Origin: a virus
Strand: one strand, 5' to 3'
Length of the DNA stretch: 64,000 nt
IMG/VR virus record: IMGVR_UViG_3300032285_000892
Coordinates: 32,001 to 96,000 of that record
Under the pieces are notes generated by a model. That model ran no database searches, was not told the origin of the DNA, and saw nothing but the letters and a program-made list of their open reading frames with translations. A program made the position numbers and the translations under genes. Positions within the stretch are counted from its first letter, which is position 1. Each line of letters starts with the position of its first letter. Below are positions 7,602 through 63,540 of this stretch, one piece after another.

Positions 7602-8654
7602 ATGAATGTCTTAATCACATTAACAACAGCAGGTGCAGATACAGGACCTTTTAATCTGTATTCAAATACAGATAGCTATGTTACAGCTTTTGCAACAGGT
7701 ATTGCAAAGTCTGTATTAGTTGCTGGGTATACAAGTACAGTGGTGCCAGCAGGCACAAACACTATACGTGTAAAATCTACAGGTGCATGTACTAATTTTG
7801 TAGACTTAGCTGTTGCAGGTGCAACTACAACTACCACTACTAGTAGTACATCTACAAGTACTTCTACATCAACAAGTACATCTACTAGTACAACTAGTAC
7901 AACAACTACACACCCTCCAGCTGATCAATGGTATCAACTTACTAACTGTACTACATCAGCAATTGATTACTCAGCAATGTATCCTACATCAGGACCACAA
8001 TTTGCATTGAATGATCGTGTAATTGATCTTGGAAGTAATTATTGGAAAGTTACTCAGATATATTATTCAAGCCCAGGTGGTTCTGGATTATTAATAGGAG
8101 CAACAGGTTTGACAGGATGTCCTGGTGATACAACAACTACTACATCTACTAGTACATCTACATCTACTAGTACAAGTACGTCAACAAGTACGTCAACAAG
8201 TACATCCACTAGTACGTCTACCAGTACGTCTACCAGTACTACAACTAGTACTACTACAGCAGCTCCTGGTACAACAACTACTACCACAACTGCACCGTTA
8301 CCTACTATCTTTGTTGATTTCTTATTACAATTAGATGCTGGTAATACAGGATCAATGGATATCTATACAGCATCCCCTATTGGTGCAGGATTTATATTGA
8401 GTCATACATTAACATCAAATGGTGAGAGTTGGTCAGTTGGATTACTTGCAGGTGATGGATACAAAGTAACTGTTACACAAGATACTAGAGCAACAAGTGG
8501 TCAAAGAGGTCAAATTGCAGATACAATAAATAGTACAACTACTTACTATTCTACTGCAGCTGGTGCACTTCCTCAATCAGTAACATCTGCTGATAGAACA
8601 CTTGCTAATGGAAATACATATAGTGTCCTTGGAATTTGTGGAGACGTTGTGTAA
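7602..8654 (+). CDS. Multi-domain virion decoration protein: three small beta domains joined by long (Thr-Ser)n mucin-like linkers
   Basis: 350 aa with TTTTTTSSTSTSTST linkers. The N-terminal 70 aa recur in the 16758 ORF. Confidence 0.6.
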   Translation: MNVLITLTTAGADTGPFNLYSNTDSYVTAFATGIAKSVLVAGYTSTVVPAGTNTIRVKSTGACTNFVDLAVAGATTTTTTSSTSTSTSTSTSTSTSTTSTTTTHPPADQWYQLTNCTTSAIDYSAMYPTSGPQFALNDRVIDLGSNYWKVTQIYYSSPGGSGLLIGATGLTGCPGDTTTTTSTSTSTSTSTSTSTSTSTSTSTSTSTSTSTSTTTSTTTAAPGTTTTTTTAPLPTIFVDFLLQLDAGNTGSMDIYTASPIGAGFILSHTLTSNGESWSVGLLAGDGYKVTVTQDTRATSGQRGQIADTINSTTTYYSTAAGALPQSVTSADRTLANGNTYSVLGICGDVV

Positions 8655-44696: not shown

Positions 44697-47600
44697 ATGG
44701 ACGTATCTTGTTCAACCTTTGAATGTCCCATTATATTAAACTCCCAATGCGTATTTTACGAAGGGAGAAATTTAGTATACACAGGTGTTAATACTAATGA
44801 TAACTTAGAAGTAGTTATACAGAAGATTGATGCAGCGTTTGGTGACGCTATGGTGGGATATATATTCTACAATGGTGTTGAACAATTAGCACCAGGAGAT
44901 CCTGTAGGACTTGGTGGATCATTAAGTCATGATACAACAATATCAGGAAACTATAAATTAACTCTTGAAGGTCCTATACAATCAGCAGCATTTATTACTG
45001 CAGGTGGTACAAACCATCAAGTGGTATTAGGAGATGGTACATTAGGTAACTTTGATACAGGAACTTCTGGTACTACAGGTACAAGCGGTACAAATGGTAC
45101 AAGTGGAACAGCTGGTAGTTCAGGTACTTCTGCAACAAGTGGTAGACAAGGATCATCAGGAACATCTGGTAGTTCAGGATCTACAGGTACAAGTGCTTCT
45201 TCAGGTAGAAGTGGAAGCTCTGGAACATCTGGCTCTAGTGCATCATCAGGATCTAGTGGATCTTCAGGTAGTTCAGGATCTAGTGGATCTAGTGCATCAT
45301 CTGGTACAAGTGCATCTTCTGGAACATCAGGAAGAACAGGTACTGCAGGTACTTCAGGATCATCTGGAGCAGCAGGAGATAGATTTAGAACATTCTCAAC
45401 AGATACTCTTACATTAGGAGACGGTGGTAACTTGACTGTTGAGATAGGGTTAGCATATACACCTGGTCAGTTATTATTAATTTCACATGATTATAATAAC
45501 TATCAAGAATGTCAACTTGTTAGTTATGATAGTGCCACTGGGGTGATGACATTCTTAGCACCTCAACCAGATAATGTTGTTGGTTCAGGTACATATAGTG
45601 TTTGGACTGTTAACTTAGGAGGTGCTGCAGGTGGTGATGGTTCATCAGGTACTAGTGGATCTTCAGGAAGAGATGGAACTAGTGGTATAAATGGTACTTC
45701 AGGAACTAATGGTACAACAGGTACCTCAGGTAGAAGTGGTACTAATGGAACAACAGGTACAAGTGCTACATCTGGTACTAACGGAACATCTGGAAGAAAT
45801 GGTACTTCAGGTACAACAGGAACTAGTGGTACTAACGGTACTTCAGGTACTTCAGGATCAGCTGGTACTAACGGTACTTCTGCTTCTTCAGGTACTTCTG
45901 GTACAAGTGCAAGTTCAGGAACTAATGGTACAGCAGGTACTTCAGGAGCTAATGGAACAAGTGGTACTAGTGGATCGTCAGGTTCATCTGGTTCGTCAGG
46001 GTCTAGTGGATCTTCTGGCTCTAGTGGAAGTTCAGGAATTAGTGGTAATGCTGGAACAAGTGGTTCATCAGGAACAAGTGCAAGAAATGGTACATCAGGA
46101 ATAGATGGTTCATCAGGTGTATCGGGTACATCTGGATTAACAGGAACATCAGGAGTATCAGGAACTGATGGTAGTTCTGGTACAAGTTCAACTTCAGGTA
46201 CAAGTGGATCTTCAGGAACGTCAGGTTCAAATGGAACATCAGGAACTTCTGCATCTAGTGGTACTTCAGGAGAATCAGGTACTATGGGAACTAGTGGAAC
46301 TTCTGGATCAAGTGGAAGTTCAGGCTCAAGTGCAACTGCAGGTACTACTGGAACTAGTGGTACTACTGGAACTAGTGGTACAAGTGGAGCAGGTGGTGCT
46401 ACAGGTACAGGAGGTACTTCAGGTACATCTGCCACAAGTGGTATATCAGGTATATCTGGTGGACAGGTATATTACATGAATCAATCTATCAATACATCAT
46501 CTGCTTTTGGTAGCCCTACATATAAACAATTAAGTAGCACTCCTTCAGGAGCCGCACAACAAACTGTCACTACAACAGTACCAAGTAACACAACACAAAC
46601 ATTAGCAACTTTTGCTACAGATAGTAATGTTCCAGGAATTGCATCTCTCCCTGGTGGTAACTGGGGAGTTACAGCTCACTTCTTATCAAACACTAGTAAT
46701 TCAGATTGGAACATCTATTATGAAGTATGGAAATACACAGTAGGAGGAACATCCACATTATTAGGAACCACTAATGATGTATTGATTACATTAAATACCA
46801 CTGTAGTTCAACAAGTGTATGCTGATACATTTATACCAGCTCAATCATTAAACATAACAGATAGAATTTATGTTAACGTTGTTGCAATCAATTCTAGCAA
46901 TCAGCCACATACTTTAATATTCTATACAGAGGGTACAAGTTACTATTCATACGTACAAACAACATTCAATGCCCCTTCAGGAACATCAGGATCATCTGGT
47001 AGTTCTGGAACTTCTAGCACTTCAGGAACCAATGGTACAAGTGGTGTAAGTGGATCATCAGGTATTTCAGGTACTAATGGTACATCAGCATCTAGTGGTA
47101 CAACTGGTACATCAGGTACCTCAGCAAGTTCTGGTTCATCAGGATCATCAGGATCAAGTGCAACTAGTGGTACATCGGCTACAAGCGGTATATCAGGTGT
47201 AGAGGGAACAAGTGGTACATCTGCAAGTTCTGGTACATCAGCATCTTCAGGTACTTCTGGATCTACAGGTACATCAGGTTCTTCAGGATCAAGTGCAAGT
47301 AGTGGAACTAGTGGAACTAGTGGAAGTGATGGATCAAGTGGAGCAAGTGGTACTTCTGGTTCTTCTGGAACATCATCTACTAGTGGAGCTGATGGTACAA
47401 GTGGTACTTCTGGTTCTTCTGGTGTAAGTGGTGGTACAGGATCTACAGGTACTGCAGGAACCACTGGAACTAGTGGTACAACTGGTACAAGTGGAGTGAG
47501 CGGTACTAATGGTACTAGTGGTGCAGGAGGAGCAGGTGGTACTAATGGTACATCAGCTACTTCAGGTACATCAGCTACTTCAGGTACAAATGGTACCTCA

Positions 47601-50600
47601 GGTGCTGGTGGTGCAGCAGGAACAAGTGGTACAAATGGAACAACTGGTACTTCAGGTACCAATGGAACTTCTGGAGCAGGCGGTGCAGCAGGAACATCAG
47701 GAACTAATGGCACAACTGGTACATCAGGTACTAACGGTACATCTGGTGCAGGTGGTGCAGCAGGTACCTCAGGTACAAATGGAACAAGTGGTGTTGCTGG
47801 AACTAGTGGAACAAATGGTACTTCTGGTGTAGGAGGAGCTGCTGGTACATCAGGTACCTCTGGTACAAACGGTACTAGTGCTACATCAGGTACCAATGGT
47901 ACATCGGGTGCTGGTGGTGCAGCAGGAACTAGTGGTACAAACGGTACTAGTGCTACATCAGGTACCAATGGTACATCGGGTGCTGGTGGTGCTGCTGGTA
48001 CATCTGGTACAAACGGAACTTCAGGTACAAACGGAACTTCAGGTACTGCAGGTGTAGGTTATGCTAACATTACATCAACAACATCTGCAACACCTGCATC
48101 AACTGGTACGATCACTCTAACAACAAATTCTCAGGGAGCATTTGTTACAGGAAATAGAGTAAGAGCAGTCAATACTGTATCCAATTTATTTGAGGGTATT
48201 GTAACTATTACAGGTGGTACTTCATTTGCTATTGCAGCAGATTATAACCTTGGTACAACCACTGCAACCTCTTGGACAATAAGCTTAGCAGGTGTTAGAG
48301 GAGTAGCAGGTACTGCAGGAACAAGTGGTACATCTGGTACCAATGGAACATCAGGTGCTGGTGGTGCTGCTGGAACTGCTGGAACTAGTGGAACATCTGG
48401 TACTAATGGTACATCTGGTGCTGGAGGTGCAGCAGGTACAAGTGGTACAAATGGTACTAGTGCTACGTCTGGTACAAACGGAACATCAGGTGCAGGAGGA
48501 GCTGCTGGTACCTCTGGTACAAATGGTACAAGTGCCACATCAGGAACCAATGGTACTTCTGGTGCTGGTGGTGCTGCTGGAACAAGTGGTACATCTGGTA
48601 CTAATGGAACTTCTGCTTCGTCAGGTACATCAGGTACAAACGGAACGTCTGGTATAGCAGGTACTTCAGGAACCAATGGTACTTCTGGAATTTCTGGTAC
48701 ATCAGGTGCAGGTGGTGCTACTGGTACTGGTGGTACTGGTGGTACATCAGGTACAAATGGAACTAGCGGTGCTGGTGGTGCTGCAGGTACTTCAGGAACA
48801 AACGGTACATCAGGAATAACTGGTACATCAGGTACCAATGGTACATCGGGTGCTGGAGGTGCAGCAGGAACTAGTGGTACAAATGGAACATCAGGAGCTG
48901 GTGGTACTGGTGGTACTGGCGGAACGTCTGGTACTAATGGTACATCAGGTGTAGGATATGCTAATATTACATCAACTACATCAGCTACACCAGCCTCAAC
49001 AGGTACAATAACATTAACTACAAACTCTCAAGGTGCGTTTGTTACAGGCGATAGAGTGAGAGCTATTAATACAGCAGCTAACTTATTTGAAGGGATTGTT
49101 ACAATCACAGGTGGTACATCTTTTGCTATTGCTGCTGACTATAATTTAGGTACTACTACTGCTACATCCTGGACTATTACTTTAGCAGGTGTCAGAGGAA
49201 TTGCAGGTACTTCAGGTACTGCAGGTACAAATGGTACATCAGGTGTAAGTGGTACATCTGGTGCAAGTGGTGCTGGTGGAACTGGTGGTACAAATGGTAC
49301 GTCTGGTACAACAGGAACATCAGGAACAAACGGTACGTCAGGAGCTGGCGGTGCTGCTGGTACAAGCGGTACAAATGGTACAAGCGGTATTGCTGGTACC
49401 TCTGGAACAAGTGGTACATCAGGTGGTGGTGGAGCTGCTGGTACATCAGGTACAAATGGAACATCAGGAATAACTGGTACATCTGGTACAAACGGAACAT
49501 CTGGTGCTGGAGGAGCTGCTGGTACAAGTGGAACATCAGCTACTAATGGAACTTCAGGTACATCAGGTGGTGGTGGAGCAGCAGGTACAAGTGGTACAAA
49601 CGGTACAACTGGTACTTCAGGTGCTGGTGGTACTGGTGGGACTAGTGGTACAAGTGCTACAAGTGGTACATCAGGATTTGGTGGAACTGGTGGAACTAAT
49701 GGTACAAGTGGTACAACAGGAACAAATGGTTCAAATGGTACCTCTGGAACTAATGGTACAACAGGTACATCAGGAACTTCAAGTACTAGTGGTACTAATG
49801 GTACTTCTGGTGCTGGAGGAGCAACTGGTACTGGTGGTACATCAGGTACAAACGGTACTAGTGGTGCAAGTGGTACATCAGGAATTAATGGTACCTCAGG
49901 ACTTAATGGTACATCAGGAGTTAGTGGAGCACAAGGAACAGGTGGAGCTAACGGTACATCAGGACTTAGTGGTACCTCAGGAGTCAGTGGTACATCAGGT
50001 ACAAGTTCTGCTATTAGAACTATACAAGTGTTCACTGCTACATCAGGACAAAGTGTATTTACTATTAGTGGTGGATATACTCCTGGTCAGATAGATATGT
50101 ATGTTAATGGTGTTAAACTGACAGCTGCTGAATATGATGCAACTAGTGGAACAACAGTAACTATAACAAGTGGTGTGATCCTTAATGATATTGTAGAAGC
50201 TTATATGTTCCAATCATTGATTGGATATATGGCTAACACTGCAACATCAGGTACATCAGGATCTAGTGGTAATGGTACAAACGGAACTTCTGGTACTACT
50301 TTTGGTACAGCAGGAACGTCTGGTGTTAGTGGTAATGGTACAGGAGGTACTTCAGGTACTAATGGTACATCAGGAGCAAATGGTACCTTTGGAACTAGTG
50401 GTACCAATGGTACCAACGGTACAGCTGGAACATCTGGATCTAGTGGTCTATCTGTAGCATTTGCTGCTGGTGGTGTTACAAGTACAGGTGTATCTACTCT
50501 TGTATTCTCTAATGCTAATGGTGTATCATTTGGTATAAACAGTAACACTATTACAGCGTCAGCTGCTGGTGGTGGAGCTGGTGTTCAGTCTTATTATGAG

Positions 50601-51365
50601 AATATGCCAGTACTTCCAGGTACTGCAGTTATACAATTAGCTGGAGCTGCCTCTAATTATTTTCAACCATTTAACCTTCCTTACGACGTAAGTGCTTCTT
50701 ATGTTAGAATGCCTGTGCAGATGTCATTCTCTTCATTGACAGCAGCTACTGGTAATAGTACTCTATCTTATGCATATAGTCAATCTCAGACTATGTATTT
50801 TAATATTTACACAATGGGTACAGGTGCAAGTTCCGAATCTTTAGGGTTATATACTCAAGCTACAGCAAGTATGGCATATGCTTTTAGTTTAAGTTATAAT
50901 GCAACCAATGCTCAGACAATAAGACATAGTTTAAGTTATCCTGTTATTGGAGGATCTGCAACAGCATCTGCAAGTACACAATCTGCTACAGCTCAAATGT
51001 ATATGGGAACTGGAGATTTAACTGCATTTTCTGGATTTAAACATTTTGATATTCCTTTTGCTGCATCATTGCCATTAGGAGATTATTGGATGGGTATTCA
51101 AAGAAGTACACAATCATCTGCATCTACACAAGTAAGTTCTGCTGTAAGTGCTGCTACTTTCCAATTTTTCAACATAGGTGTATCTCAACAGAATGCTGCG
51201 TATAACTTAATGGGTACAACTGCTTCTACTAACCCAATTCAGTTAGGAGTAGGAGTTTATTCAGCAAGTGCTGTAGGTGCAACAAGTGCTTCAGTAGGTT
51301 TAAGTCAAATATCAACAGCAGCATCTAACTTAAGATTCCCTTTCCAGTTAATAAGACTAGCATAA
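44697..51365 (+). CDS. Giant fibre protein (2222 aa) of G-X-Y (GTS/GTN/GSS/GAG) tracts interrupted by small globular domains
   Basis: Its N-terminus ([28 protein letters not shown]) is shared with the 2302 ORF. About 5 kb of G-X-Y. Interspersed domains at about 45375, 46460, 48051, 48948 and 50010, plus a C-terminal domain. Confidence 0.8.
45058..50450 (+). repeat. Coding G-X-Y repeat region of the giant fibre, including a perfect 60-nt direct repeat (47861-47920 and 47933-47992)
   Basis: Direct reading of the sequence. The 60-nt copies were checked base by base. Confidence 0.9.
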
Positions 51366-51370
51366 TATTA

Positions 51371-51402
51371 TTTGAATAATTGGAAACAATTGTCTATCTT
51401 AG
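51371..51402 (+). promoter_or_regulatory. Bacteroidota-type promoter variant (TTTG-N20-TAtcTTAG)
   Basis: TTTG at 51371-51374 and TATCTTAG at 51395-51402, 15 nt before ATG 51418. Confidence 0.5.
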
Positions 51403-51417
51403 TTGCAAACTAAATAT

Positions 51418-52140
51418 ATGAGTGATATAAAGCCACAAATTGTAATGCATGGGTTCGAAGGTTTTCACAACGAACAACGTTATGAAGACCTTGCCCAAAA
51501 GAATGTTTACAGGGACTTATCTACAATCTGTATTGTACCAACCAGAGGAATGATTTCTGCTAAGGTGGTTCAATCGTGGATGGGACTAATGTCATCAATG
51601 AACCAAAAGTTCATAAGGATGTTTGCAATCGGTATGGAAGTGGGTGCTGCCTATAGTCAAACTATAGAACAGATACTTCTACATCCAGAACTTTCTAAAT
51701 GGAAATACATCTTGACTCTAGAGGAAGACAATTGTCCTCCACCAGATGGATTGATTAAGTTGTATGAACATATGGATGAGTATGATGCCATTGGTGGATT
51801 GTATTGGACTAAAGGTATAGAAGGTAAACCAATGTGTTACGGAAATCCTAAAGTGTTTCCAGTAAACTTTGTGCCATTTATGCCTGATCCTGATACGGTT
51901 ACAAGATGTAACGGATTAGGAATGGGTTTTACTCTATTCAAACTAGATATGTTTAAGAACCCTAAGATGCCTAAACCTTTCTTTGAAACAGTTCAAAGAT
52001 ATACAGAAGGTAAAGGAGTGGAAGGATACACACAGGACCTAAAGTTCTTTGAAGAGGCAGGTAAACTTGGATATAAGTTTGCATGTGACTCAAGAGTAAA
52101 GGTAGGTCACTATGATGTGAATGAAGATCAAATGTGGTAA
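51418..52140 (+). CDS. GT-A fold glycosyltransferase (GT2-like)
   Basis: ICIVPTRG, YILTLEEDN (DxD equivalent), GLGMGFTLF, TQDLKF..A.KLGY...CDSRVKVGH. The start was moved from TTG 51403 to ATG 51418. Confidence 0.75.
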   Translation: MSDIKPQIVMHGFEGFHNEQRYEDLAQKNVYRDLSTICIVPTRGMISAKVVQSWMGLMSSMNQKFIRMFAIGMEVGAAYSQTIEQILLHPELSKWKYILTLEEDNCPPPDGLIKLYEHMDEYDAIGGLYWTKGIEGKPMCYGNPKVFPVNFVPFMPDPDTVTRCNGLGMGFTLFKLDMFKNPKMPKPFFETVQRYTEGKGVEGYTQDLKFFEEAGKLGYKFACDSRVKVGHYDVNEDQMW

Positions 52141-52158
52141 ACCAACAAATATAAACCA

Positions 52159-52734
52159 ATGAATGAACAATTAGAAGAAGTTATTGCAGTTGATTTAGGC
52201 TGCGGACAAAACAAAGCAACTATAGAGTTCTTTACAAACAATATGCAAGTCACTCCCACTAAAGTGATTGGTTTGGATATAGCTAACTGTGAAGGCGTAG
52301 ATATTGTACACGACTTAACTGTATTTCCATATCCTATTGAGGATGAATCAGTTGACGCAATACATACATCTCATTTCATAGAACACTTAGATGGGTTTGA
52401 GAGAATGAAGTTCTTTGATGAGTGCTATAGGATATTGAAGAAAGGCGGAAAGATTAGAGCTATCCATCCTTATTACAAATCTGTAAGAGCTATTCAAGAT
52501 CCCACACATAAGTTTCCACCTATTGGTGAGACATCTTATTTGTATTGGGATAAGAATTGGAGAGAAGTCAACAAGCTTGACCATTATCCTATTAAGTGTG
52601 ACTTTGAATTTAATATTTTTTATACTTGGCAAGACCCAAGTATACCAAACAAGAATGAAGAAACAAGGAATTTCAGTATTGATAAATACTGGAATGTTGT
52701 GGCTGATATGATTGTCGATTTAAAGAAACGATAA
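52159..52734 (+). CDS. Class I SAM-dependent methyltransferase (type 11-like)
   Basis: VDLGCG (motif I), GLDI, HDLTVFPYPIEDESVDAIHTSHFIEHL, ECYRILKKGG. Confidence 0.9.
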   Translation: MNEQLEEVIAVDLGCGQNKATIEFFTNNMQVTPTKVIGLDIANCEGVDIVHDLTVFPYPIEDESVDAIHTSHFIEHLDGFERMKFFDECYRILKKGGKIRAIHPYYKSVRAIQDPTHKFPPIGETSYLYWDKNWREVNKLDHYPIKCDFEFNIFYTWQDPSIPNKNEETRNFSIDKYWNVVADMIVDLKKR

Positions 52735-52767
52735 TAAGATTACCAGAAACAGATATAATTTTAGAAC

Positions 52768-55515: not shown

Positions 55516-55530
55516 TAAATAATAAATAAT

Positions 55531-55845
55531 ATGAATACTTACGAATGGATTATTTCAAAATTAGAAGTTATGCCTCAAGTTGGTAGTATAAATGATTATG
55601 TTGTTCGTTGCCATTGGAAATATGTAGCAACAGATGGTACAATAACAAAAGAAGAATATGGGTTGCAAGCATTTGAACCAGACCCTGCTCAACAAAATTA
55701 TGTTCCATATGAGTCTTTAACAAAAGAAGTTGTAGAGGGATGGTTAAATAGTTCTATAAATGTAGAAGCAATGAAAGCATCATTAGATGGTAAGATTCAA
55801 GATGAATTACAACCATCTATTGTTAGTTTACCTATTCCTTGGTAA
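55531..55845 (+). CDS. Small fibre-associated protein
   Basis: 104 aa (YEWII..HW...VPYESLTKEVVEGW...LPIPW), a type I recognise as commonly following phage fibre genes. Confidence 0.55.
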   Translation: MNTYEWIISKLEVMPQVGSINDYVVRCHWKYVATDGTITKEEYGLQAFEPDPAQQNYVPYESLTKEVVEGWLNSSINVEAMKASLDGKIQDELQPSIVSLPIPW

Positions 55846-55849
55846 CGTA

Positions 55850-55880
55850 TTGCAAATATTTAAAACATTATATACATTTG
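55850..55880 (+). promoter_or_regulatory. Bacteroidota-type promoter (TTG-N20-TAcaTTTG)
   Basis: Exact TAnnTTTG at 55873-55880 and TTG at 55850-55852. Confidence 0.6.
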
Positions 55881-55901
55881 CATAAACTAACAGACATTAT
55901 T

Positions 55902-56171
55902 ATGAAATTAAATTTTAACTTCAACTTGGTTAACCTAGATGGTATAGAGATCGAGAATGCTAATGCAGGAAAAGTATTAGCAAACGCACTAGTTCAACAA
56001 CCTAAAGGAGATGCTCTTAAAATATGGGAAATATCATTAGCTCTCAACAAGGGAGAGATTGTTGATTTAGATTCTTCTGATCAAGAACTTATTAAAAACT
56101 TCATTAGAGAGACTGACGCAATTAATATTATTGCTAAGGGTCAAATCCTAACTGTTTTTAATAAAGGGTAG
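55902..56171 (+). CDS. Small helical hypothetical protein (89 aa, MKLNFNFNL...)
   Basis: The start was moved from 55839 to ATG 55902, which lies downstream of the promoter. The 3' end overlaps the convergent heptosyltransferase gene by 24 nt. Confidence 0.6.
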   Translation: MKLNFNFNLVNLDGIEIENANAGKVLANALVQQPKGDALKIWEISLALNKGEIVDLDSSDQELIKNFIRETDAINIIAKGQILTVFNKG

Positions 56172-57218
56172 TTTAACCATTACATCTTCTACGGAGATAC
56201 TCTTATGGCATTCAAACTGTCTAGGAGTATCTTCGTGTTCAGGACACCAGTTCCAATTACCCTTATCAAATCTGAATTTAGGGTTATTCCAACATCCATT
56301 ACATACACTTCTGTTTTCTATACGGATGCATTCAAACTCGTGATTAGCTTCTGTAAAGTTAGCTATCATTACAACAATAGTTTCTAATGCCCAGGCCAAC
56401 CAGCTAATACCACTACTTAGTCCTATGTAGAAGTCACATCCATTAAGATGATTAATGACGCTCTCTAGAGATGTATCTTCTAGTTTCTCTGCACCATAAT
56501 CATCTGCCTCTTGTGATAATTCAATCACTCTATATCCTTGATCTTTTAGCCTACGTATAAGTTCTGGCCACTTATCCCAATGTTTGCATTGAGATGTACT
56601 TTTTGTAGATATACAGATATACTTTTCATCTTCCAGTAATAATCCTGGTAGATCAATTATCCTTGGTCTCATCTCCTTGTATGGTAGATGTAGAATATTA
56701 CATGCGGCTTTCTGTAATGGTATCGTTACAGGATTAACAGGTTCTTTATTACTATCCCAATGCCATCCTAAGTCTGGCATAGCTACAATATCATATACCA
56801 CCTGCCCTGGTTGAACAAACTCAAGTTCAGGATACATACTTTCAAACAAGAAGTTCTTGAATGTGCTCACGATAACATCGCACTGATACTTCTTTTTGAA
56901 CTCTAAACAATATGGCATCCATGCAATAGTATCTCCTAAGGAGCTGCTACCAAATGCAATGAACACACGTTTATCTTTAAGATGTTGTAAGAAGCTTATG
57001 CGACGTTTCAATACACCCTTACTGTTCCTAGCTTCCAAAAAGAAGTTACCAATGTAACGTATAGGAAACTTCATCCATGTATTCTTACTAAGAGTTGTAC
57101 TATAGTGTTCTTTACGTTCACCATCAATCTCTTCAACAAATGTACATGTATAATCTTCATCACAGTCTGTAATTTCAAAGTACAAACCATCAATGTTATG
57201 GAAGTTATAATTAAACAT
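56148..57218 (-). CDS. Autotransporter O-heptosyltransferase homologue (BAHT family, TibC/Aah-like) with an intact iron-finger
   Basis: SLGDTIAW, YICISTKSTSQCKHW, FYIGLSSGISWLAWA, and C-x2-C-x15-C-x11-C ending TPRQFEC. Confidence 0.85.
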   Translation of the reverse strand: MFNYNFHNIDGLYFEITDCDEDYTCTFVEEIDGERKEHYSTTLSKNTWMKFPIRYIGNFFLEARNSKGVLKRRISFLQHLKDKRVFIAFGSSSLGDTIAWMPYCLEFKKKYQCDVIVSTFKNFLFESMYPELEFVQPGQVVYDIVAMPDLGWHWDSNKEPVNPVTIPLQKAACNILHLPYKEMRPRIIDLPGLLLEDEKYICISTKSTSQCKHWDKWPELIRRLKDQGYRVIELSQEADDYGAEKLEDTSLESVINHLNGCDFYIGLSSGISWLAWALETIVVMIANFTEANHEFECIRIENRSVCNGCWNNPKFRFDKGNWNWCPEHEDTPRQFECHKSISVEDVMVKLPFIKNS

Positions 57219-58911
57219 ATGTTTCTATATAAGCTTTAGTTGTATCTTCACTTGTCCATCTCTTATTAATAATTCCTGCAGCATCGTACATCTTCTTTAA
57301 TTGCTTACATATCACACTCCAATCATACTCTTCACGATGTTCTAGTTGATCAGTGTAATATTTAAACCACCCTCTATCTAATGTTGCTAGTCCTTTTCTT
57401 GCTTCCATTTCTGTTACTTCTGACATTCTATACATACCAGGAACCTCTGCATTACATGTACCAACAATTGGTAATCCACAACTCATTGCTTCTAGAATGG
57501 CTAGGTTAGGATGGCCATACTCTAAGAATGATGGAGCCATGAATATACTATGTGTTTGATAAAGCTCTAGTGTTTCTGCATCTGTAGGATTTGTACACTT
57601 TAAAGTTAACTTTTCATAGTCTAATAGATCTGGATGACCCTTAAAAAACTCTAGGTTATTCTCAGGACCTGCAATAGTAATAGGTAACTTAAACCACTTA
57701 GCTGCAGCTATTGCTATCCTGAATCCTTTACGATCAATAGTGCTATCACCTGCTAGTCCATTGTTACAGATCATTAATAGCTTCTTATCTTCACGCACAT
57801 CTGGTAGAATAGGTTTGAAGAATTCTGTATCTACTCCATGAGATAGGAAGAATAACTTATCCGTATCATCAAAGTAATTAATGATGTGTTTACTATGACA
57901 TATAGAAAACACAGATCCTTTGATAGCTGCTAGATTATTGTGGTATACGCCACTGTCCTTCCCATAGTATTCAGCATGATGATCATGTAGAGAGTATACA
58001 TATGGTATACCTTTGGCTAACATGTCAAGAGCTGTATTAGCCATATGACAATGCACGAGTTGGTTCTCTTGCTTTGTTACTTCATTCCATTGTTGTATCT
58101 CTACATCTACGCCAAGTCTTCTAAGTCTATCTGTATATGACCAGATGATACGTTCTACAGCTCCCCAACCATTAGGTGGGATAGTGATTAGGCCAGTGGC
58201 CACTTGTACTATCTTATATTTCATTTCTTTATTAATTTTCATTTCCCATTTGTCTAGATATTTTTGTTCTCCTTGTCGCATTTTAATAATTGCAGAATCA
58301 TTAAGATTTACTATGTTTAATGATTTAAGATGACTAACTAATGAATGTCTTACTAATGCATGCTTTATGCCTTTACTCTCTATTACTCTAGCATAGTCAT
58401 TGTCCTGATAGTACATATCAAAGTTTTCATCCCAAGGACATACTAGATCAAATACTCTTTTAGTCATTACAAAACACCAGCCACCTAAGAACTCTGTAAC
58501 TTTATAACTTTCATAGTATGTATCATCACCATACATAAAATGATGGTCATAGAATCTAGCATACAGTATAGGATCTCTAGGCGTGAATGATTCAATGTCT
58601 GGTCTTTCAGTATGTACATTTACAATCTCAGTGAACCAATTCTTTTCAAACAATAGATCATTGTTTATAATAACCACCCAGTCATTACTACAATACCTAC
58701 TTGCTATATTGATATATTTATTATATCCAAAAGGTTCTTTTGAGATAACGTAGCTATCTACATATTTAGAATAGTCCCAAGTCTCTCCTGATTCTACTAA
58801 TATAATGTTAAATTTATGAGCCTTATCCGTATAGCGTAATGTGAACAATGTTCTACATACCATCTCATAAGTTTCTGCATCTGTTTTAGTAAGACAAATT
58901 ACATCTACCAT
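57211..58911 (-). CDS. Bifunctional glycosyltransferase: N-terminal GT-A (GT2-like) plus C-terminal GT-B (GT4-like)
   Basis: N-half: IILVES, VVIINNDLLF, YYQDNDY. C-half: PPNGWGAVE, SHGVDTEFF, PSFLEYGHPNLAILEAMSCGLPIVG. Confidence 0.85.
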   Translation of the reverse strand: MVDVICLTKTDAETYEMVCRTLFTLRYTDKAHKFNIILVESGETWDYSKYVDSYVISKEPFGYNKYINIASRYCSNDWVVIINNDLLFEKNWFTEIVNVHTERPDIESFTPRDPILYARFYDHHFMYGDDTYYESYKVTEFLGGWCFVMTKRVFDLVCPWDENFDMYYQDNDYARVIESKGIKHALVRHSLVSHLKSLNIVNLNDSAIIKMRQGEQKYLDKWEMKINKEMKYKIVQVATGLITIPPNGWGAVERIIWSYTDRLRRLGVDVEIQQWNEVTKQENQLVHCHMANTALDMLAKGIPYVYSLHDHHAEYYGKDSGVYHNNLAAIKGSVFSICHSKHIINYFDDTDKLFFLSHGVDTEFFKPILPDVREDKKLLMICNNGLAGDSTIDRKGFRIAIAAAKWFKLPITIAGPENNLEFFKGHPDLLDYEKLTLKCTNPTDAETLELYQTHSIFMAPSFLEYGHPNLAILEAMSCGLPIVGTCNAEVPGMYRMSEVTEMEARKGLATLDRGWFKYYTDQLEHREEYDWSVICKQLKKMYDAAGIINKRWTSEDTTKAYIETYV

Positions 58912-58916
58912 ATATA

Positions 58917-61544
58917 TTACTTTCTAAATGTTTTAAACTGCTGATCTATTAATGAGTAACCATCTGCTTGTGTAGTGATACGATTGTGTACAATGCCCAT
59001 CTCATATCCACTACCACGAAAAATGTTATTAAAATAAATATCTGCAGCATCCCAAGGATGTGTTCTTAGTTTATCTTTTAAATAGTTCTTAACAAACTTA
59101 GGGAACATAATACATTGCATACCTATAAGATGGTTTGTAACATACATGTCTTCATTCACTTCTTTCACTACAGGACTCTGTGGCCAGCCAAAGTCTAAGG
59201 TATCTTTGTCACCAAATGACATGAATCCTATATTATTAGCTTCTAGCTTTGTGGCACATTCTTCCACCATGTAAACAAATTTGTTTACATCTACCTCAAT
59301 TATGCAATCTCCTTCACACACTATTAGATAATCACATTCACTAAACTCACCTAGGATAGCTTCTTTGAAGGCTGAATAGCAACCGTAGTGTGCTGGCGTA
59401 AGAGCTGTGCTTCTTTCTCTGACTGTAGCTTCATCGAATAACTCCATAGAGACTGCTTGTGGCCTGTTACAGTTATGGATGGGTGGGAGGCTACGATAAG
59501 GCTCGTTCGTGTGCAAGATGTACTCCCATCCATAATCTTGTACTTGCTCCAACGACGCTCTTGATAATTGTTCTCTGTCATCATTTAATGTAGTTTGTAT
59601 GTGTACTAATTTAATCTTTGGTCTATTTGTTTTAGGAGCTGGTTCAGATCCTGTTAATATCTTTATAGTTCCTTTTATATCGTTTACAGAAAACTCTCTT
59701 GTGGTTTGGTTTTCCACCAACTCTAAACTCACTGTAACAATATCATCATCTAGTCGTAGATATGATTCTTTATACTTAAGATCTAGCTCTCTTGAGAACT
59801 CTCTCTTATTATTTAACAATCTCATCTTGTAGTAAGGAACAGTCTCATTGTATGTATAGAAATAGAAGTAGTTACGATTGTCTTCTTCACATCTAACAAT
59901 ACCTATGTACTCACTATTAGAAGACTTGCCTTCGCCTGTATGTACTAAGAATGTTTCCTCTTCAGGATGTTCTACCCATATACCATCTGTTCTCTCTACC
60001 TTCTTCATCATGTAATCTTCTAAGAAGTTATGACATCCTATATACTCACATAATGAATTGTATTGTTCAGGTGTACGTACATCATCTAATAATTTACTAA
60101 TAAAGTTTGTATTAAAGAACATACAATTAGTTTGTATACCTTTACCAAATGGCGTATTCAATGTAGCTAATACAGCTTTCCATTCTTCATCTAACTTATT
60201 AAAGTTATTATTGATGACATTAAAATCTCTTTCATCTATTACATGATCAAATGTTACATAGAACATCTTAGTAAAACCAAACACTTTAGCTGCTTTACCT
60301 GCATTAATTAAATTAGTTAGTACTGTTAATGACTGATTGGTAGGTCCTTCAATGCGCATCTCTACACTATAGTCTTCCTGACTGCGAGTGAATCTATTAT
60401 AGTAGCTATGATGTGTCAAAGGATTATGCTCATCATAAATGTAGTAGTCTACCAGCTTCTGTACATCAGGATTTACAGGATAATGACTTACTAACATAAT
60501 TGGTCTACCTAACTTCCTAGCGCTTTCTATACATGCAATAGTTAAGTTTTCTCTAATCTTAGTATCAGGATATGTTCCTATAACGATTAGTTCTTTATTA
60601 ATTAATTCTAAGTTTAATATTTCTTTCATAGCAGCTATATCATTACTAACGTTACCAGTTAAATAGGTGACGTCATCATAATCATTATACTTATTACAAT
60701 ACACATCTAGGTTGTACATCATCTTAGGTAGATCAGGATAGCATAATGCTTCTTTGATTGCAATAGGGTTAAGCTCTTTGTTACCTCTATCTCCTTTAGA
60801 TGGAAATAAGAACATGTCAGACTCACTCACCCATTTACTTACTACATCTATTTCTCCATGAACTAAACAGTTGTCTGGTAGATCTTTCATTAATGGTTTC
60901 CAGTAGCTTTCAAAGTTACCAGCTTGATTACCTAAGAAGTGAAACTTTATATTATAGTCTACAAGATGCTTAGCCATCTCAATAGCATAGCCTTGGTTTT
61001 TACGTTGTGTCCACAATCCTACAATTACTACATGTTTATAATCTCTTTGTTCTGGATAACGTACAATAGTATCTACAGGATACTCAATAACACGCATTGG
61101 TACTTCTAGATGAGCATACTTGAATACATTGTATGCACTAACAAACACAAACTCATCTGGCATCCATCTCTTATGATCAGGATTGAATGAGCTATCATGT
61201 GTAGTTTCTACAATACGATAGGTTCTATCTCCACTGTACACTTCTCTGGTAAGATCATTGTCCATGAACATCTCTGGAAACTCTTCCATAGAGATGACAT
61301 CAGGATTAAAGATTTCAATAAAATCTAAAAGCTCTCCCTTGTTATCTCCTAATGATTTAAAATTATCACCAAGGATATCAATCACCTTGTTGCGCTGTAC
61401 TACATACTTCCATGCAATGAATGCATACTCAACTACCATGATATCAAAATGATCCTTGAGTAGTTCTACTTTATTTAAAGTTACCTGTGGCGCTCCTCCT
61501 GTAGAGAAATGAGGAGATACTATTAAGAGCCTTTTTCGTGACAT
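58917..61544 (-). CDS. Multidomain glycosyltransferase: GT4-like N-terminus, possible central GT-A-like domain, GT25-like C-terminus
   Basis: PHFSTGGAPQ...DMFLFPS...ELNPIAIKEA (GT4). Central LVSHYP..FYVTFDHVI. C-terminal HYGCY...YLIVCEGD..WDAAD (GT25-like). Confidence 0.8.
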   Translation of the reverse strand: MSRKRLLIVSPHFSTGGAPQVTLNKVELLKDHFDIMVVEYAFIAWKYVVQRNKVIDILGDNFKSLGDNKGELLDFIEIFNPDVISMEEFPEMFMDNDLTREVYSGDRTYRIVETTHDSSFNPDHKRWMPDEFVFVSAYNVFKYAHLEVPMRVIEYPVDTIVRYPEQRDYKHVVIVGLWTQRKNQGYAIEMAKHLVDYNIKFHFLGNQAGNFESYWKPLMKDLPDNCLVHGEIDVVSKWVSESDMFLFPSKGDRGNKELNPIAIKEALCYPDLPKMMYNLDVYCNKYNDYDDVTYLTGNVSNDIAAMKEILNLELINKELIVIGTYPDTKIRENLTIACIESARKLGRPIMLVSHYPVNPDVQKLVDYYIYDEHNPLTHHSYYNRFTRSQEDYSVEMRIEGPTNQSLTVLTNLINAGKAAKVFGFTKMFYVTFDHVIDERDFNVINNNFNKLDEEWKAVLATLNTPFGKGIQTNCMFFNTNFISKLLDDVRTPEQYNSLCEYIGCHNFLEDYMMKKVERTDGIWVEHPEEETFLVHTGEGKSSNSEYIGIVRCEEDNRNYFYFYTYNETVPYYKMRLLNNKREFSRELDLKYKESYLRLDDDIVTVSLELVENQTTREFSVNDIKGTIKILTGSEPAPKTNRPKIKLVHIQTTLNDDREQLSRASLEQVQDYGWEYILHTNEPYRSLPPIHNCNRPQAVSMELFDEATVRERSTALTPAHYGCYSAFKEAILGEFSECDYLIVCEGDCIIEVDVNKFVYMVEECATKLEANNIGFMSFGDKDTLDFGWPQSPVVKEVNEDMYVTNHLIGMQCIMFPKFVKNYLKDKLRTHPWDAADIYFNNIFRGSGYEMGIVHNRITTQADGYSLIDQQFKTFRK

Positions 61545-62479
61545 GTTATTGTTTTTGCAAGGTTATACACTCTATCTACGTCTGGTTGACACTCAAACGT
61601 TTCTTTGTTTTCTAAACATCCAATGAGTGGCTGCACATAATCTATAGTGGGCCAATACTCAAGGGCGTACTTCATATTGGAGCAGCAATGTAGATCACAC
61701 GATCCCTCTACATAGTGGTATCGATACGTCTGACCATTGGCCCTATAAGGTATTCTAAATTCAGGAGATAGTGCAGATCCTAGATGAATGATCTCACTGC
61801 GTGTTGTACCTGCTAGATGTAGCAGTCCGCTATCCATTGTAATAAAACATGAAGCTTTGTTGATGAGGTGCCAGCAATCAGATATACTGGTCTTGTTCAT
61901 TAGGTTCATACCTAATGGTATTTCAAAATTGAATGCAGGTTTTTCTACATTAAAGAACCCAGTCTCACTACTATCCTTACCTATACTGATGACATGTATA
62001 CCTGCAGCATTAAGCTTCTCTGTTAAATCCATCCACTTATCTGCTGGCCATGTTCTATTAGCCCATGTGGTTACAGGATGTATCAATACATAATGTTCAG
62101 GGAGTTCCATCTCAAAGTCTGTGAGAGGAATGTAATCACATTTCATCTCACTCTTACGTAACATAAATCCTAAATGTATAGCATGGAACTGACGTATGTC
62201 CATGGTATTATGCTTCATCTCTACACCACGCTCATCTTTCTTACCTACCAGATAGAAAGAGTTATGCATGATATAATTATCATTGAAGTAACCCCAGTCA
62301 ATTGATGTATGTTTATAACTAGCCTCTACGTATGGTAGTTTCTTGAACAACTCTGGCATAGGACTCACCACAGTTATCTTCTTTCCGTATGATTCAGCTA
62401 GCTTTCTTATCGTAGGCGTTGCACAGATAAGATCACCTAGAGCAGGACATTCACTAAGATTAAGACAAACAGGTTTCAT
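61523..62479 (-). CDS. GT9-family (heptosyltransferase-like) glycosyltransferase with a C-terminal Cys cluster
   Basis: LGDLICATPTIRKL, YVLIHP...NRTWPADKW, FITMDSGLLHLAG, and C-x3-CC...C...FEC. Confidence 0.85.
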   Translation of the reverse strand: MKPVCLNLSECPALGDLICATPTIRKLAESYGKKITVVSPMPELFKKLPYVEASYKHTSIDWGYFNDNYIMHNSFYLVGKKDERGVEMKHNTMDIRQFHAIHLGFMLRKSEMKCDYIPLTDFEMELPEHYVLIHPVTTWANRTWPADKWMDLTEKLNAAGIHVISIGKDSSETGFFNVEKPAFNFEIPLGMNLMNKTSISDCWHLINKASCFITMDSGLLHLAGTTRSEIIHLGSALSPEFRIPYRANGQTYRYHYVEGSCDLHCCSNMKYALEYWPTIDYVQPLIGCLENKETFECQPDVDRVYNLAKTITCHEKGS

Positions 62480-63120
62480 GATTTTCTCATTAAGAAGTCA
62501 ACTGTCTCATCGTTTCTCTCAATTATTTCATATCCTAATCCTGTTAGAAAATTCACTGCAGTGTTTGTATTATCTTCTAACCAGATAAGTGGTGCATCTC
62601 TATCAATCAACTTTAACATACCTTCAAATGCAGACATCTCATGACCTTCTATATCTATCTTAATGAATTCAACATGCTCATCTAAATGAAGATCATCTAA
62701 AGCTAAGACTATATTTCTATTATGTCCATATTGAACAATTCTTACAACACCACTATTTGAGTAATGTCCATCATCAAAATGCACAAGGGATGTTCTACTA
62801 CCTACACCTACATTAAGTGCGGCTACATCAGAATACCTATCTGTATTCTGTTTTAATAAAGCAAAGTTTTCTGGATGAATTTCAAAAGCTATGATATTTA
62901 GCTCAGGAAAGTGGTGTTTGAATTGTACACAATGTGCACCTATGTTAGCACCAATGTCTAACATTAGTCCTGTAGAAGGGAAATGATGTTTCCATCTATT
63001 GAATATTTCAAATTCCCAAAAGTTATTATACTTAACTATATCGTCTGATATAAACTCAGGACCCTCAAAAATAATCATAGGGTTACCTTGTATACTAGTA
63101 AGTCTAGTTCCTCTTCTCAT
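62476..63120 (-). CDS. FkbM-family methyltransferase
   Basis: LDIGANIGAH, AFEIHPENF, FIKIDIEGHE. The start was moved from 63168 to 63120 because a minus-strand promoter lies at 63138-63168. Confidence 0.9.
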   Translation of the reverse strand: MRRGTRLTSIQGNPMIIFEGPEFISDDIVKYNNFWEFEIFNRWKHHFPSTGLMLDIGANIGAHCVQFKHHFPELNIIAFEIHPENFALLKQNTDRYSDVAALNVGVGSRTSLVHFDDGHYSNSGVVRIVQYGHNRNIVLALDDLHLDEHVEFIKIDIEGHEMSAFEGMLKLIDRDAPLIWLEDNTNTAVNFLTGLGYEIIERNDETVDFLMRKS

Positions 63121-63123
63121 GTA

Positions 63124-63155
63124 TTTGTTGGTTTGGTCAAAGTTAAATATATTTG
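63124..63155 (+). promoter_or_regulatory. Rightward Bacteroidota promoter TTTG-N20-TATATTTG
   Basis: TTTG at 63124-63127 and TATATTTG at 63148-63155. ATG at 63172. Confidence 0.7.
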
Positions 63156-63168
63156 TATAAAAAAACAA
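63138..63168 (-). promoter_or_regulatory. Leftward Bacteroidota promoter TTG-N20-TAACTTTG driving the glycosyltransferase operon
   Basis: Plus-strand CAAAGTTA at 63138-63145 and CAA at 63166-63168. Confidence 0.6.
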
Positions 63169-63171
63169 GAC

Positions 63172-63540
63172 ATGTATATAGAAGTTAGTACAGGAGAAGT
63201 AGCTGATAAGATCAGCATCCTAGTTATTAAGAATGAGAAGATCACTGATGAAACTAAGCTAGCTAATGTTCAGAAAGAACTCAGTGCATTGATTGAACTG
63301 TTTCCTGCAGAGATACTAATTGACAAGCTGTATAATGAATTATGTCATGTAAACATTCAACTCTGGCATATAGAAGATGCTATTAGAGAGAAGGAAAGAT
63401 TACGTGAATTTGATGAAGAATTCATCAAGCTTGCACGAGATGTTTACTTTACGAACGATCGAAGAGCTGCTATTAAAAAAGAAATAAATATTAAGTACGG
63501 ATCTGATTTTGTAGAAGAAAAATCATATAAAGTATATTAA
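63172..63540 (+). CDS. DUF6165-like helical protein
   Basis: IEVSTGEVADKISILVIK...N.QLWHIEDAIRE.E...F..LAR.VY..ND.R..IK.EIN...GS...EEKSY. The start was moved from 63088 to 63172. Confidence 0.75.
   Translation: MYIEVSTGEVADKISILVIKNEKITDETKLANVQKELSALIELFPAEILIDKLYNELCHVNIQLWHIEDAIREKERLREFDEEFIKLARDVYFTNDRRAAIKKEINIKYGSDFVEEKSYKVY

Follow-up and report, generated by a model that had tools for sequence, protein, structure and literature searches.

What do glycosyltransferases act on when their genes stand among the genes for giant phage fibres: the fibres themselves, the host surface or DNA? This question is raised by a locus at positions 44697-63540 of a 64,000-nucleotide stretch of viral DNA (hereafter the window), which covers bases 32001-96000 of the 119,148-bp virus record IMGVR_UViG_3300032285_000892, a genome with direct terminal repeats. 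An earlier note, made from the sequence without database searches, had proposed that this crAss-like phage builds multi-sugar, O-methylated glycans on its own fibres and capsid. The genes that it listed were all present, at the coordinates given below. Comparison with related and distant genomes suggests that the minus-strand operon of the locus probably O-glycosylates, in the cytoplasm, collagen-like fibres of the phage itself, whose Gly-Thr-Ser repeats are free of proline. The enzyme families, the conservation of catalytic residues, the domain fusions and the co-variation of the operon with collagen-like fibres were observed directly.

The minus-strand operon and its TibC-like enzyme

The operon comprises five minus-strand genes, listed here with a divergent neighbour:

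56148..57218, minus strand: TibC/Aah-type (BAHT) protein O-glycosyltransferase, 356 amino acids (aa), assigned from TIGR04414 and PDB 4rap; proposed initiating enzyme
57211..58911, minus strand: glycosyltransferase of 566 aa with GT2 (GT-A) and GT4 (GT-B) domains, both above Pfam cut-offs
58917..61544, minus strand: multidomain glycosyltransferase of 875 aa, GT4 (GT-B) at residues 1-313 and, as a lead only, GT25-like at residues 315-875
61523..62479, minus strand: GT9 heptosyltransferase-like glycosyltransferase, 318 aa (Pfam GT9, E 5e-18)
62476..63168, minus strand: FkbM S-adenosylmethionine (SAM) methyltransferase, the first operon gene, its likely start an internal Met near 63120
63088..63540, plus strand: DUF6165 protein (29.3 bits, cut-off 27), its likely start near 63172

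As described earlier, the five minus-strand genes overlap or nearly abut (overlaps of 8, 22 and 4 nt, otherwise 5 nt apart). The DUF6165 gene, the product of which is also weakly DUF4254-like, is divergent from them. Searches with Pfam, TIGR04414 and PDB 4rap, together with AlphaFold2 models and Foldseek, upheld the GT-A, BAHT, GT2 + GT4 and GT9 assignments that had been made for the locus, and profile scores confirmed the identities of the Methyltransf_11, FkbM and DUF6165 genes.

The 356-aa protein scored 227 bits on TIGR04414 (hepto_Aah_TibC; equivalog cut-off 200) over profile positions 47-370 of 374, and matched TibC (PDB 4rap) with an E of 4e-43 over residues 70-375. On the lipopolysaccharide (LPS) heptosyltransferase I model it reached 25.7 bits, against a cut-off of 185. 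The key residues of TibC, as defined in PMC4358343, were mapped onto the phage protein via the TibC alignment. The catalytic base Asp110 corresponds to D96, within an LGD motif, and the ligand residues Thr226, Lys230 and Trp305 are kept (three of the four ADP-heptose-binding residues). The four iron-finger cysteines (Cys339, 342, 358 and 370; 1Fe-0S) correspond to Cys306, 309, 325 and 337, with iron binding predicted, and Pro300, the stereoselectivity site, is replaced by Ser as in Aah. The catalytic, Thr/Lys/Trp and iron-finger Cys positions were invariant in 11 phage homologues with 35-61% identity, indicating that the protein is under selection as an enzyme. Judged by its sequence, it is a true BAHT relative, and its passing of the autotransporter O-heptosyltransferase equivalog agrees with the earlier view that the system is directed at protein and not at LPS or DNA. 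The alignment begins at query residue 55, and the Pfam model of the N-terminal beta-barrel of TibC (residues 1-97; TibC_1st, PF21129) had no hit; a weak match to PF21129 was found only in the TibC fusion of the Microcystis phage Mel-JY01. The phage protein probably does not form the TibC-type dodecamer.

The glycosyltransferases could alternatively remodel the host surface (LPS, O-antigen, capsule or a glycoprotein receptor), blocking superinfection or the sticking of progeny to debris, and travel with fibre genes since receptor specificity and masking must match. Glycosyltransferases that lie in "host recognition clusters" among the tail-fibre genes of aquatic phages are usually read in this way (PMC7029224); GT9 and GT4 are families typical of LPS-core enzymes, and the module lies within a variable fibre region and is swapped along with the fibre. 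The profile scores argue against it, the key enzyme passing the protein O-heptosyltransferase equivalog and falling far below the LPS heptosyltransferase cut-off, and so does the absence of membrane anchors. A simple hydropathy scan with a 19-residue window found no signal-peptide-like N-terminus among the enzymes and no clear transmembrane window (maximum 1.58, within a conserved GT-B core strand), in agreement with the earlier note.

For the 875-aa protein, the earlier assignment as GT4 + GT25-like held in its first half. Residues 1-313 form a complete GT4 GT-B fold (Z ~21), and residues 315-875 consist of two alpha/beta domains and a beta-sandwich. Foldseek aligned the protein with COLGALT1 over 620-634 columns at an E of ~1.5e-8, with a TM-score of only 0.15-0.25, and in its nearest Atlas cluster PF01755 occurred in 17% of members. 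The C-terminal part had no Pfam match, and searches of PDB by sequence and by profile were empty. The resemblance of residues 315-875 to the tandem GT-A domains of COLGALT1/GT25 is a lead only, since a second look with VIA-align covered only the N-terminal domain (1-313). Six of the at least seven catalytic glycosyltransferase domains once counted in the locus are therefore firm, and the seventh or eighth is a lead.

One of the structures matched by the fold of the GT4 domain was T4 alpha-glucosyltransferase (Z 18), which brings up glycosylation of the phage's own DNA (hypermodified bases) against restriction. Phage GT-B enzymes can glycosylate DNA, and viral glycosyltransferases are known to make a variety of DNA glycans (Pyle et al., 2024, as cited in PMC12619734). 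The genome holds no thymidylate-synthase-type hydroxymethylase gene, a targeted search for PF00303 giving no match, and the cluster sits in the structural and fibre region, which together make this explanation highly unlikely; the TibC equivalog is, moreover, a protein glycosyltransferase, and the module co-varies with fibre type, as described below.

Domain fusions in other loci join the TibC-like enzyme to the other enzyme classes of the operon. It is fused to homologues of the N-terminal GT4 domain of the 875-aa protein in L013-L021, L030 and L033, to the GT4 half of the 566-aa protein in L024-L026 and the phage LR756501, to GT9 and a TylF sugar O-methyltransferase in L022, to Methyltransf_11 and GT4 in L013, to FkbM in L213, and to GT4 in Mel-JY01. 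Fusion of TibC to each class suggests that the enzymes act sequentially on one substrate and that methylation is part of the product; to the extent that methyltransferase domains are among the fused partners in relatives, the O-methylated glycan proposed earlier fits. DUF6165 stands beside the TibC module in eleven loci (L006, L010, L011, L013, L018-L021, L030 and L033, all viral, and L206).

The 566-aa protein also varies in its build. Its GT2 and GT4 halves are separate genes in L006:8342-10008 and L010:8342-10014, and no homologue of the GT2 half was found within the fetched loci of L008, L011 and L012. The split or absent GT2 half in these relatives shows an apparently recent fusion or fission inside the operon.

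Collagen-like fibres and their co-variation with the operon

The proposed substrates are two collagen-like fibres, to which a third fibre can be added as a possible acceptor:

44697..51365, plus strand: collagen-like tail fibre, 2222 aa (Pfam Collagen, PHROG tail fibre); proposed main acceptor
2302..5229, plus strand: second collagen-like fibre, 975 aa, with GTS, GTN and GTT triplets (Pfam Collagen, E 7e-52)
52768..55515, plus strand: tail-spike-like fibre, 915 aa, 27% Ser + Thr (PHROG tail spike, E 5e-27); possible second acceptor

The 2222-aa fibre, earlier described as rich in Thr, Ser and Asn, is indeed composed of 24% G, 19% T, 19% S and 6% N, with 1.3% P, and matched Pfam Collagen (PF01391) in 15 stretches with an E of 2.6e-101. 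It contains 25 uninterrupted G-X-Y blocks that amount to 1077 aa or 359 triplets (GTS, GTN, GSS), with zero proline and just 16 charged residues; Thr occupies position X in 65% of triplets, and position Y is taken by Ser in 52% and by Asn in 17%. A 116-aa N-terminal anchor, also found on non-collagen fibres of relatives, is followed by the G-X-Y blocks with small globular inserts and by a C-terminal tip (~residues 1920-2222). To judge by these features the protein is a genuine collagen-register fibre, for which formation of a triple helix without proline is a prediction only. The 975-aa fibre has 132 uninterrupted triplets and a C-terminal Peptidase_S74 intramolecular chaperone, and its gene lies ~40 kb away from the operon.

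Relatives of the phage were compared in 21 records, 17 of which were complete or near-complete and underlie the TibC counts within this group. Portal identity was 81-87% in the 13 relatives with portal loci, a comparison that leaves aside the portals of G019-G021. Collagen content was measured as the number of hits per genome to a DNA pattern of ten consecutive Gly-X-Y triplets (GGN). The 13 TibC-positive relatives had 53-652 hits, and the four TibC-negative relatives had 0, 9, 3 and 0 (exact Mann-Whitney p 0.0008). The co-occurrence expected in the earlier note was thus found, the TibC module tracking Gly-Thr-Ser collagen fibres in 13 vs 4 genomes. All four TibC-negative relatives were also without the 875-aa, 566-aa and 318-aa (GT9) glycosyltransferases. 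A search of the whole of G002, the one genome in which the methyltransferases and DUF6165 were checked genome-wide, found no GT-A (245 aa), Methyltransf_11, FkbM or DUF6165 gene.

In the portal tree, the TibC-negative relatives fell in at least three places: G004 was paired with G008, G012 stood by itself, and the TibC-positive G003 was the sister of G002. The co-variation comprises 17 genomes and three to four evolutionary events. In each TibC-negative relative, the gene after that for the 1670-aa protein encodes the same 116-aa anchor (56-59% identity), here as the start of a fibre of 1315-2550 aa that is not collagen-like; downstream of this swapped fibre, none of the four had a glycosyltransferase. 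G002 was also without the second collagen fibre, which is unlinked to the operon (~40 kb in this genome), and the short collagen segment left over in G004 was poor in Ser/Thr. Fibres of other TibC-positive loci matched the collagen-embedded inserts of the fibre and did not match its C-terminal 300 aa, so that the module follows the shaft and not the receptor-binding tip. Both the tracking of the shaft and the loss of the unlinked fibre together with the module in G002 speak against the remodelling of host surfaces.

The pairing extends beyond this group. Among 28 viral TibC loci in IMG/VR, 17 had 60 aa or more of G-X-Y sequence no further than 10 kb away, mostly in giant proteins with 30-44% Ser + Thr, compared with six of the 80 control loci found via the GT-A protein, just two of which were Ser/Thr-rich (Fisher p 4e-8). 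In the cultured Microcystis phage Mel-JY01, the TibC domain lies at the end of a 1226-aa GT4-containing protein, and a 1016-aa G-X-Y open reading frame (ORF; Ser + Thr 0.40) is located two genes upstream of this fusion. A G-X-Y protein of the 735-kb phage LR756501 likewise has a GT4-TibC fusion and a protein of the 875-aa type as neighbours. Mel-JY01 additionally encodes, 3 kb from its TibC fusion, a 639-aa protein with a weak cytidylyltransferase-like domain (L034:11243-13162), which could be a nucleotide-sugar activating enzyme.

In GTDB genomes, a single-sequence scan found no relative of the TibC-like protein; a profile scan did, and the cellular homologues fell into two sets, the 18 closest loci and 62 classical BAHT loci (Burkholderia, Bradyrhizobium, Acetobacter and others). 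Ser/Thr-rich G-X-Y repeats were nearby in 11 of the 18 closest loci vs one of the 62 classical ones. Among the closest loci are those of Arenicellales, other Gammaproteobacteria and Pseudobdellovibrionaceae, on chromosomes and contigs of metagenome-assembled genomes, and they include large contigs and a 5.2-Mb Arenicellales chromosome. On the Arenicellales chromosome OZ244198.1 (L221:8495-12565) and in L218, genes on either side of TibC encode small proteins that bear (GTS/GSS)n repeat tails; in L221, the locus in which these sequences were read, the three repeat proteins carry lipobox signal peptides and poly-Asp ends. By sequence, these pairs look like a cellular counterpart of the phage enzyme and its repeat. 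That cellular homologues adjoin GTS-repeat proteins, and not LPS genes, is a further point against the host surface as target, and taken with the other evidence makes that explanation unlikely.

The same neighbourhoods fit a different acceptor, namely host Gly-Ser/Thr-repeat proteins or other Ser/Thr-rich phage proteins, such as the 915-aa spike or a 350-aa protein, since the cellular homologues neighbour GTS-repeat-tail proteins (lipoproteins in L221), some TibC-bearing phage records without the collagen pattern have adjacent proteins with 20-23% Ser + Thr, and further Ser/Thr-rich proteins are encoded in the genome. Within the phage group, however, TibC separates perfectly with the phage's own collagen repeats, and a homologue of the 915-aa spike is rarely present in TibC loci. 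Another acceptor seems quite improbable as a general account, and it may apply to phages with TibC but no collagen pattern. The 915-aa protein itself, which had been listed as a beta-roll fibre among the likely substrates, is not a conserved partner of TibC, its homologues being rare among TibC loci. Read from sequence, it has two blocks of repeats, ~17 of the N-x-A-I-G, YadA-head-like type, and it matched no Pfam family up to an E of 1. The 350-aa protein (window 7602-8654) has 40% Ser + Thr, with two long (Thr-Ser)n mucin-like linkers separating globular parts, and could be a further target of O-glycosylation.

Several points weigh against glycosylation of the collagen-like fibres by the operon, the basis for which is comparative throughout. 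The sugar-binding Arg286 of TibC is Val254 in the phage enzyme and V, T or S in its close clade, Arg being retained only in the distant homologues L025 and L031. TibC residues 261-270, with the beta-hairpin thumb (Phe265/Val266), fall in a 10-residue gap, a site where an insertion is retained in some distant phage homologues. The phage enzyme may consequently differ from TibC in its donor and its quaternary structure. Heptose-pathway genes (PfkB, SIS_2, CTP_transf_like) were not found in the genome, targeted searches for PF01467, PF00294 and PF13580 gave no match, and a screen of selected larger ORFs in both genome arms yielded no nucleotide-sugar genes. The BAHT enzymes known so far act on beta-helical passengers of autotransporters and not on collagen repeats. 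Five TibC-bearing records, the whole 636-kb phage LR756504 and four fragments, were without the ten-triplet collagen pattern. Finally, as fibre and operon are adjacent, a single recombination event might exchange them together even if they were functionally unconnected; the loss of the unlinked second fibre in G002 weakens this objection, and that loss and the distant recurrences of the pairing answer it only partly. With these points taken into account, comparative genomics ties the operon to the phage's own Gly-Thr-Ser fibres, which we still consider its likely target, as the core of the earlier note had it.

Neighbouring genes and genome setting

Four further plus-strand genes lie between the 2222-aa fibre and the operon:

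51403..52140, plus strand: GT-A fold glycosyltransferase, 245 aa, assigned with AlphaFold2 and Foldseek, directly 3' of the 2222-aa fibre
52159..52734, plus strand: SAM methyltransferase Methyltransf_11 (Pfam), obligate partner of the GT-A gene
55531..55845, plus strand: DUF7936 protein, 104 aa; relatives often have it next to fibre genes
55839..56171, plus strand: putative 110-aa ORF with no family match, uncertain as a real gene

The 245-aa protein was sub-threshold in Pfam. Its AlphaFold2 model (pLDDT 82.7, pTM 0.82) matched STIV A197 (2c0n) in Foldseek with an E of 1.6e-10, followed by SpsA, LH3 and ppGalNAc-T, and E107 and D109 of its ExD motif were invariant in 20 homologues. More than 3,000 homologues were found at 62-83% identity, with the Methyltransf_11 partner present in 79 of 80 viral GT-A loci; the TibC loci of relatives contain no GT-A homologue. 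An ORF lies upstream in 68 loci, and in 40 of these the GT-A gene directly follows a same-strand non-collagen ORF of at least 400 aa (median Ser + Thr ~0.25). An iterated hidden Markov model built on the C-terminal tip of the fibre strayed to a short repeat and was used only for the observation that the cassette follows large fibre-like proteins. From this distribution, GT-A and Methyltransf_11 are best described as a separate, widespread, fibre-associated two-gene cassette, outside the TibC module and not tracking collagen repeats, which may modify another part of the fibres. Of the single system proposed earlier, the minus-strand operon and DUF6165 thus hold together, and the GT-A and Methyltransf_11 pair belongs to a cassette shared by thousands of phages.

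A second sugar cluster lies on the minus strand beyond the end of the window (genome 106459-108972; L005:1459-3972) and contains two GT2 genes (253 and 188 aa), Methyltransf_24 (181 aa) and a family-less 215-aa ORF. Since the TibC-negative G002 holds only distant counterparts (25-27%), this cluster appears to vary independently of collagen fibres. A 338-aa gene (window 69423-70942; L004:6423-7942) carried an HPAT/SERGT-like label that was dropped, as Pfam and NCBIfam gave no match. Its conservation is 62-69% both in relatives that have the module and in those that do not, which places it outside the module. The product of the next gene has 32% Ser + Thr.

Upstream of the locus are the terminase, portal and major head genes, followed by genes for very large virion proteins of 1494, 960, 1204, 933, 4164 and 1670 aa. 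The 4164-aa protein (window 27063-39557) is the largest of the genome and shares 40-47% identity with a 4448-aa protein of G002. TerL identity was 39% to the Leptolyngbya phage Lbo-JY46, 32% to the Cellulophaga phages phi17:2 and phi4:1, and 26-31% to crAss-like phages, and the sole matches of the major capsid protein were Lbo-JY46 (25%) and the Flavobacterium FpV phages (22%). By these pairwise identities Lbo-JY46 is the nearest cultured phage, and the crAss-like status given to the phage earlier is reduced to a distant, loose relationship, seen in TerL, with no crAss-like match of the capsid protein. A megablast of the region against cultured phages gave no match, and a literature search on Lbo-JY46 and Mel-JY01 found no paper. 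In IMG/VR, 508 portal relatives were found, the best 80 of which share 80-87% identity, and by this measure the phage group is abundant. Hints of the host were limited to phage-like contigs binned with metagenome-assembled genomes of Chitinophagaceae and Bacteroides in the GTDB profile scan.

Proposed pathway and comparison with known systems

The acceptor, order of steps, sugar and purpose of the pathway we infer as follows. Its members would be the FkbM methyltransferase, GT9, the GT4 + GT-A-like protein, the GT2 + GT4 protein and the TibC-like enzyme, with the neighbouring DUF6165 gene belonging to it, and its substrates the adjoining 2222-aa fibre and the 975-aa fibre 40 kb off. The TibC-like enzyme would add the first sugar to Ser/Thr hydroxyls of the G-T-S repeats, either heptose from host ADP-heptose or a related sugar, the latter being allowed for because one sugar-binding residue differs. 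The GT9, GT4 and GT-A domains would then lengthen the glycan and the methyltransferase(s) would O-methylate it, all inside the infected cell and at the latest while fibres trimerise and virions assemble. The most attractive purpose would be to stabilise or solubilise a triple helix devoid of both proline and hydroxyproline, and to shield the fibre. Nothing points to the capsid as a target, and its glycosylation, also proposed earlier, is unsupported.

A bolder extension, which we advance tentatively and with considerable doubt, is that this TibC subfamily of aquatic phages and some bacteria might be a dedicated collagen-maturation enzyme for unfolded Gly-Ser/Thr-Ser/Thr repeats, with a dense glycan coat, built jointly with the fused or neighbouring elongating glycosyltransferases and O-methyltransferases, replacing hydroxyproline in stabilising proline-free triple helices. 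Such fibres could not exist without the module, which would explain why relatives without the module are also without the repeats. If so, collagens would be stabilised in a third, independent way, in addition to prolyl hydroxylation and to that of the glycosylated-Thr collagens, and this kind of virion glycosylation would be widespread among environmental phages.

If glycosylation of the phage's own fibres is correct, the fibres of a large class of abundant environmental phages are glycoproteins, with a bearing on host recognition, fibre stability and protease resistance, and on the annotation of thousands of "LPS" genes in viromes. The BAHT family, known from autotransporter adhesins, would come to include enzymes for collagen-like repeats, and for glycosylated proline-free collagen materials a simple and testable pair of enzyme and substrate would be at hand. 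BAHT protein glycosylation, virion glycosylation and glycosylated collagen-like proteins are each known; what would be new is their pairing in a phage module, and no description of a phage heptosyltransferase paired with glycosylation of a collagen-like fibre was found in the searchable literature.

The closest likeness is to TibC-TibA and Aah-AIDA-I of E. coli (PDB 4rap/4rb4; PMC4358343), with which the phage has in common a homologous enzyme, the catalytic Asp, the Thr/Lys/Trp residues and the four-Cys iron finger. TibC and Aah are soluble cytoplasmic enzymes that multiply O-glycosylate a nearby-encoded, repetitive, Ser-rich surface fibre or adhesin, and the same is predicted for the phage. 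Unlike them, the enzyme is phage-encoded, with the thumb deleted and Val in place of Arg286; the phage has no autotransporter, and the proposed acceptor is a Gly-Thr-Ser collagen-like repeat. The phage enzyme is also embedded with four to five more glycosyltransferase domains and with methyltransferases, which implies an extended, methylated glycan and not single heptoses.

To our knowledge, phage-encoded virion glycosylation has been shown only in mycobacteriophages. Their own glycosyltransferases modify virion proteins in the cytoplasm, and in actinobacteriophages the capsid and tail-tube subunits are reported to carry the glycans at their C-termini (Freeman et al., 2023; PMC10527164). The present system differs in its proposed collagen-like target and BAHT-type initiator and in being predicted from genomes.

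Glycosylation of collagen-like proteins has its own precedent in the BclA proteins of Bacillus and C. difficile (PMC8968730). BclA of B. anthracis and B. cereus, BclA1/BclA3 of C. difficile (SgtA) and Mimivirus collagen are Thr-rich Gly-X-Y surface proteins (PMC8968730, PMC7157674, PMC9546862) that carry O-linked, partly methylated sugars added by dedicated, nearby-encoded enzymes, and Mimivirus has its own glycosyltransferases. Their repeats hold proline (GPT) or hydroxylysine and their enzymes belong to other families, whereas the phage repeats are proline-free and the initiator is TibC-like. Pelagimyophages and cyanomyophages likewise have several glycosyltransferase genes among their fibre genes, as well as collagen-repeat and YadA-like fibre domains (PMC7029224). 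Those enzymes were read by the authors as modifiers of the host O-chain (PMC7029224); here, the fibres themselves are favoured as the target.

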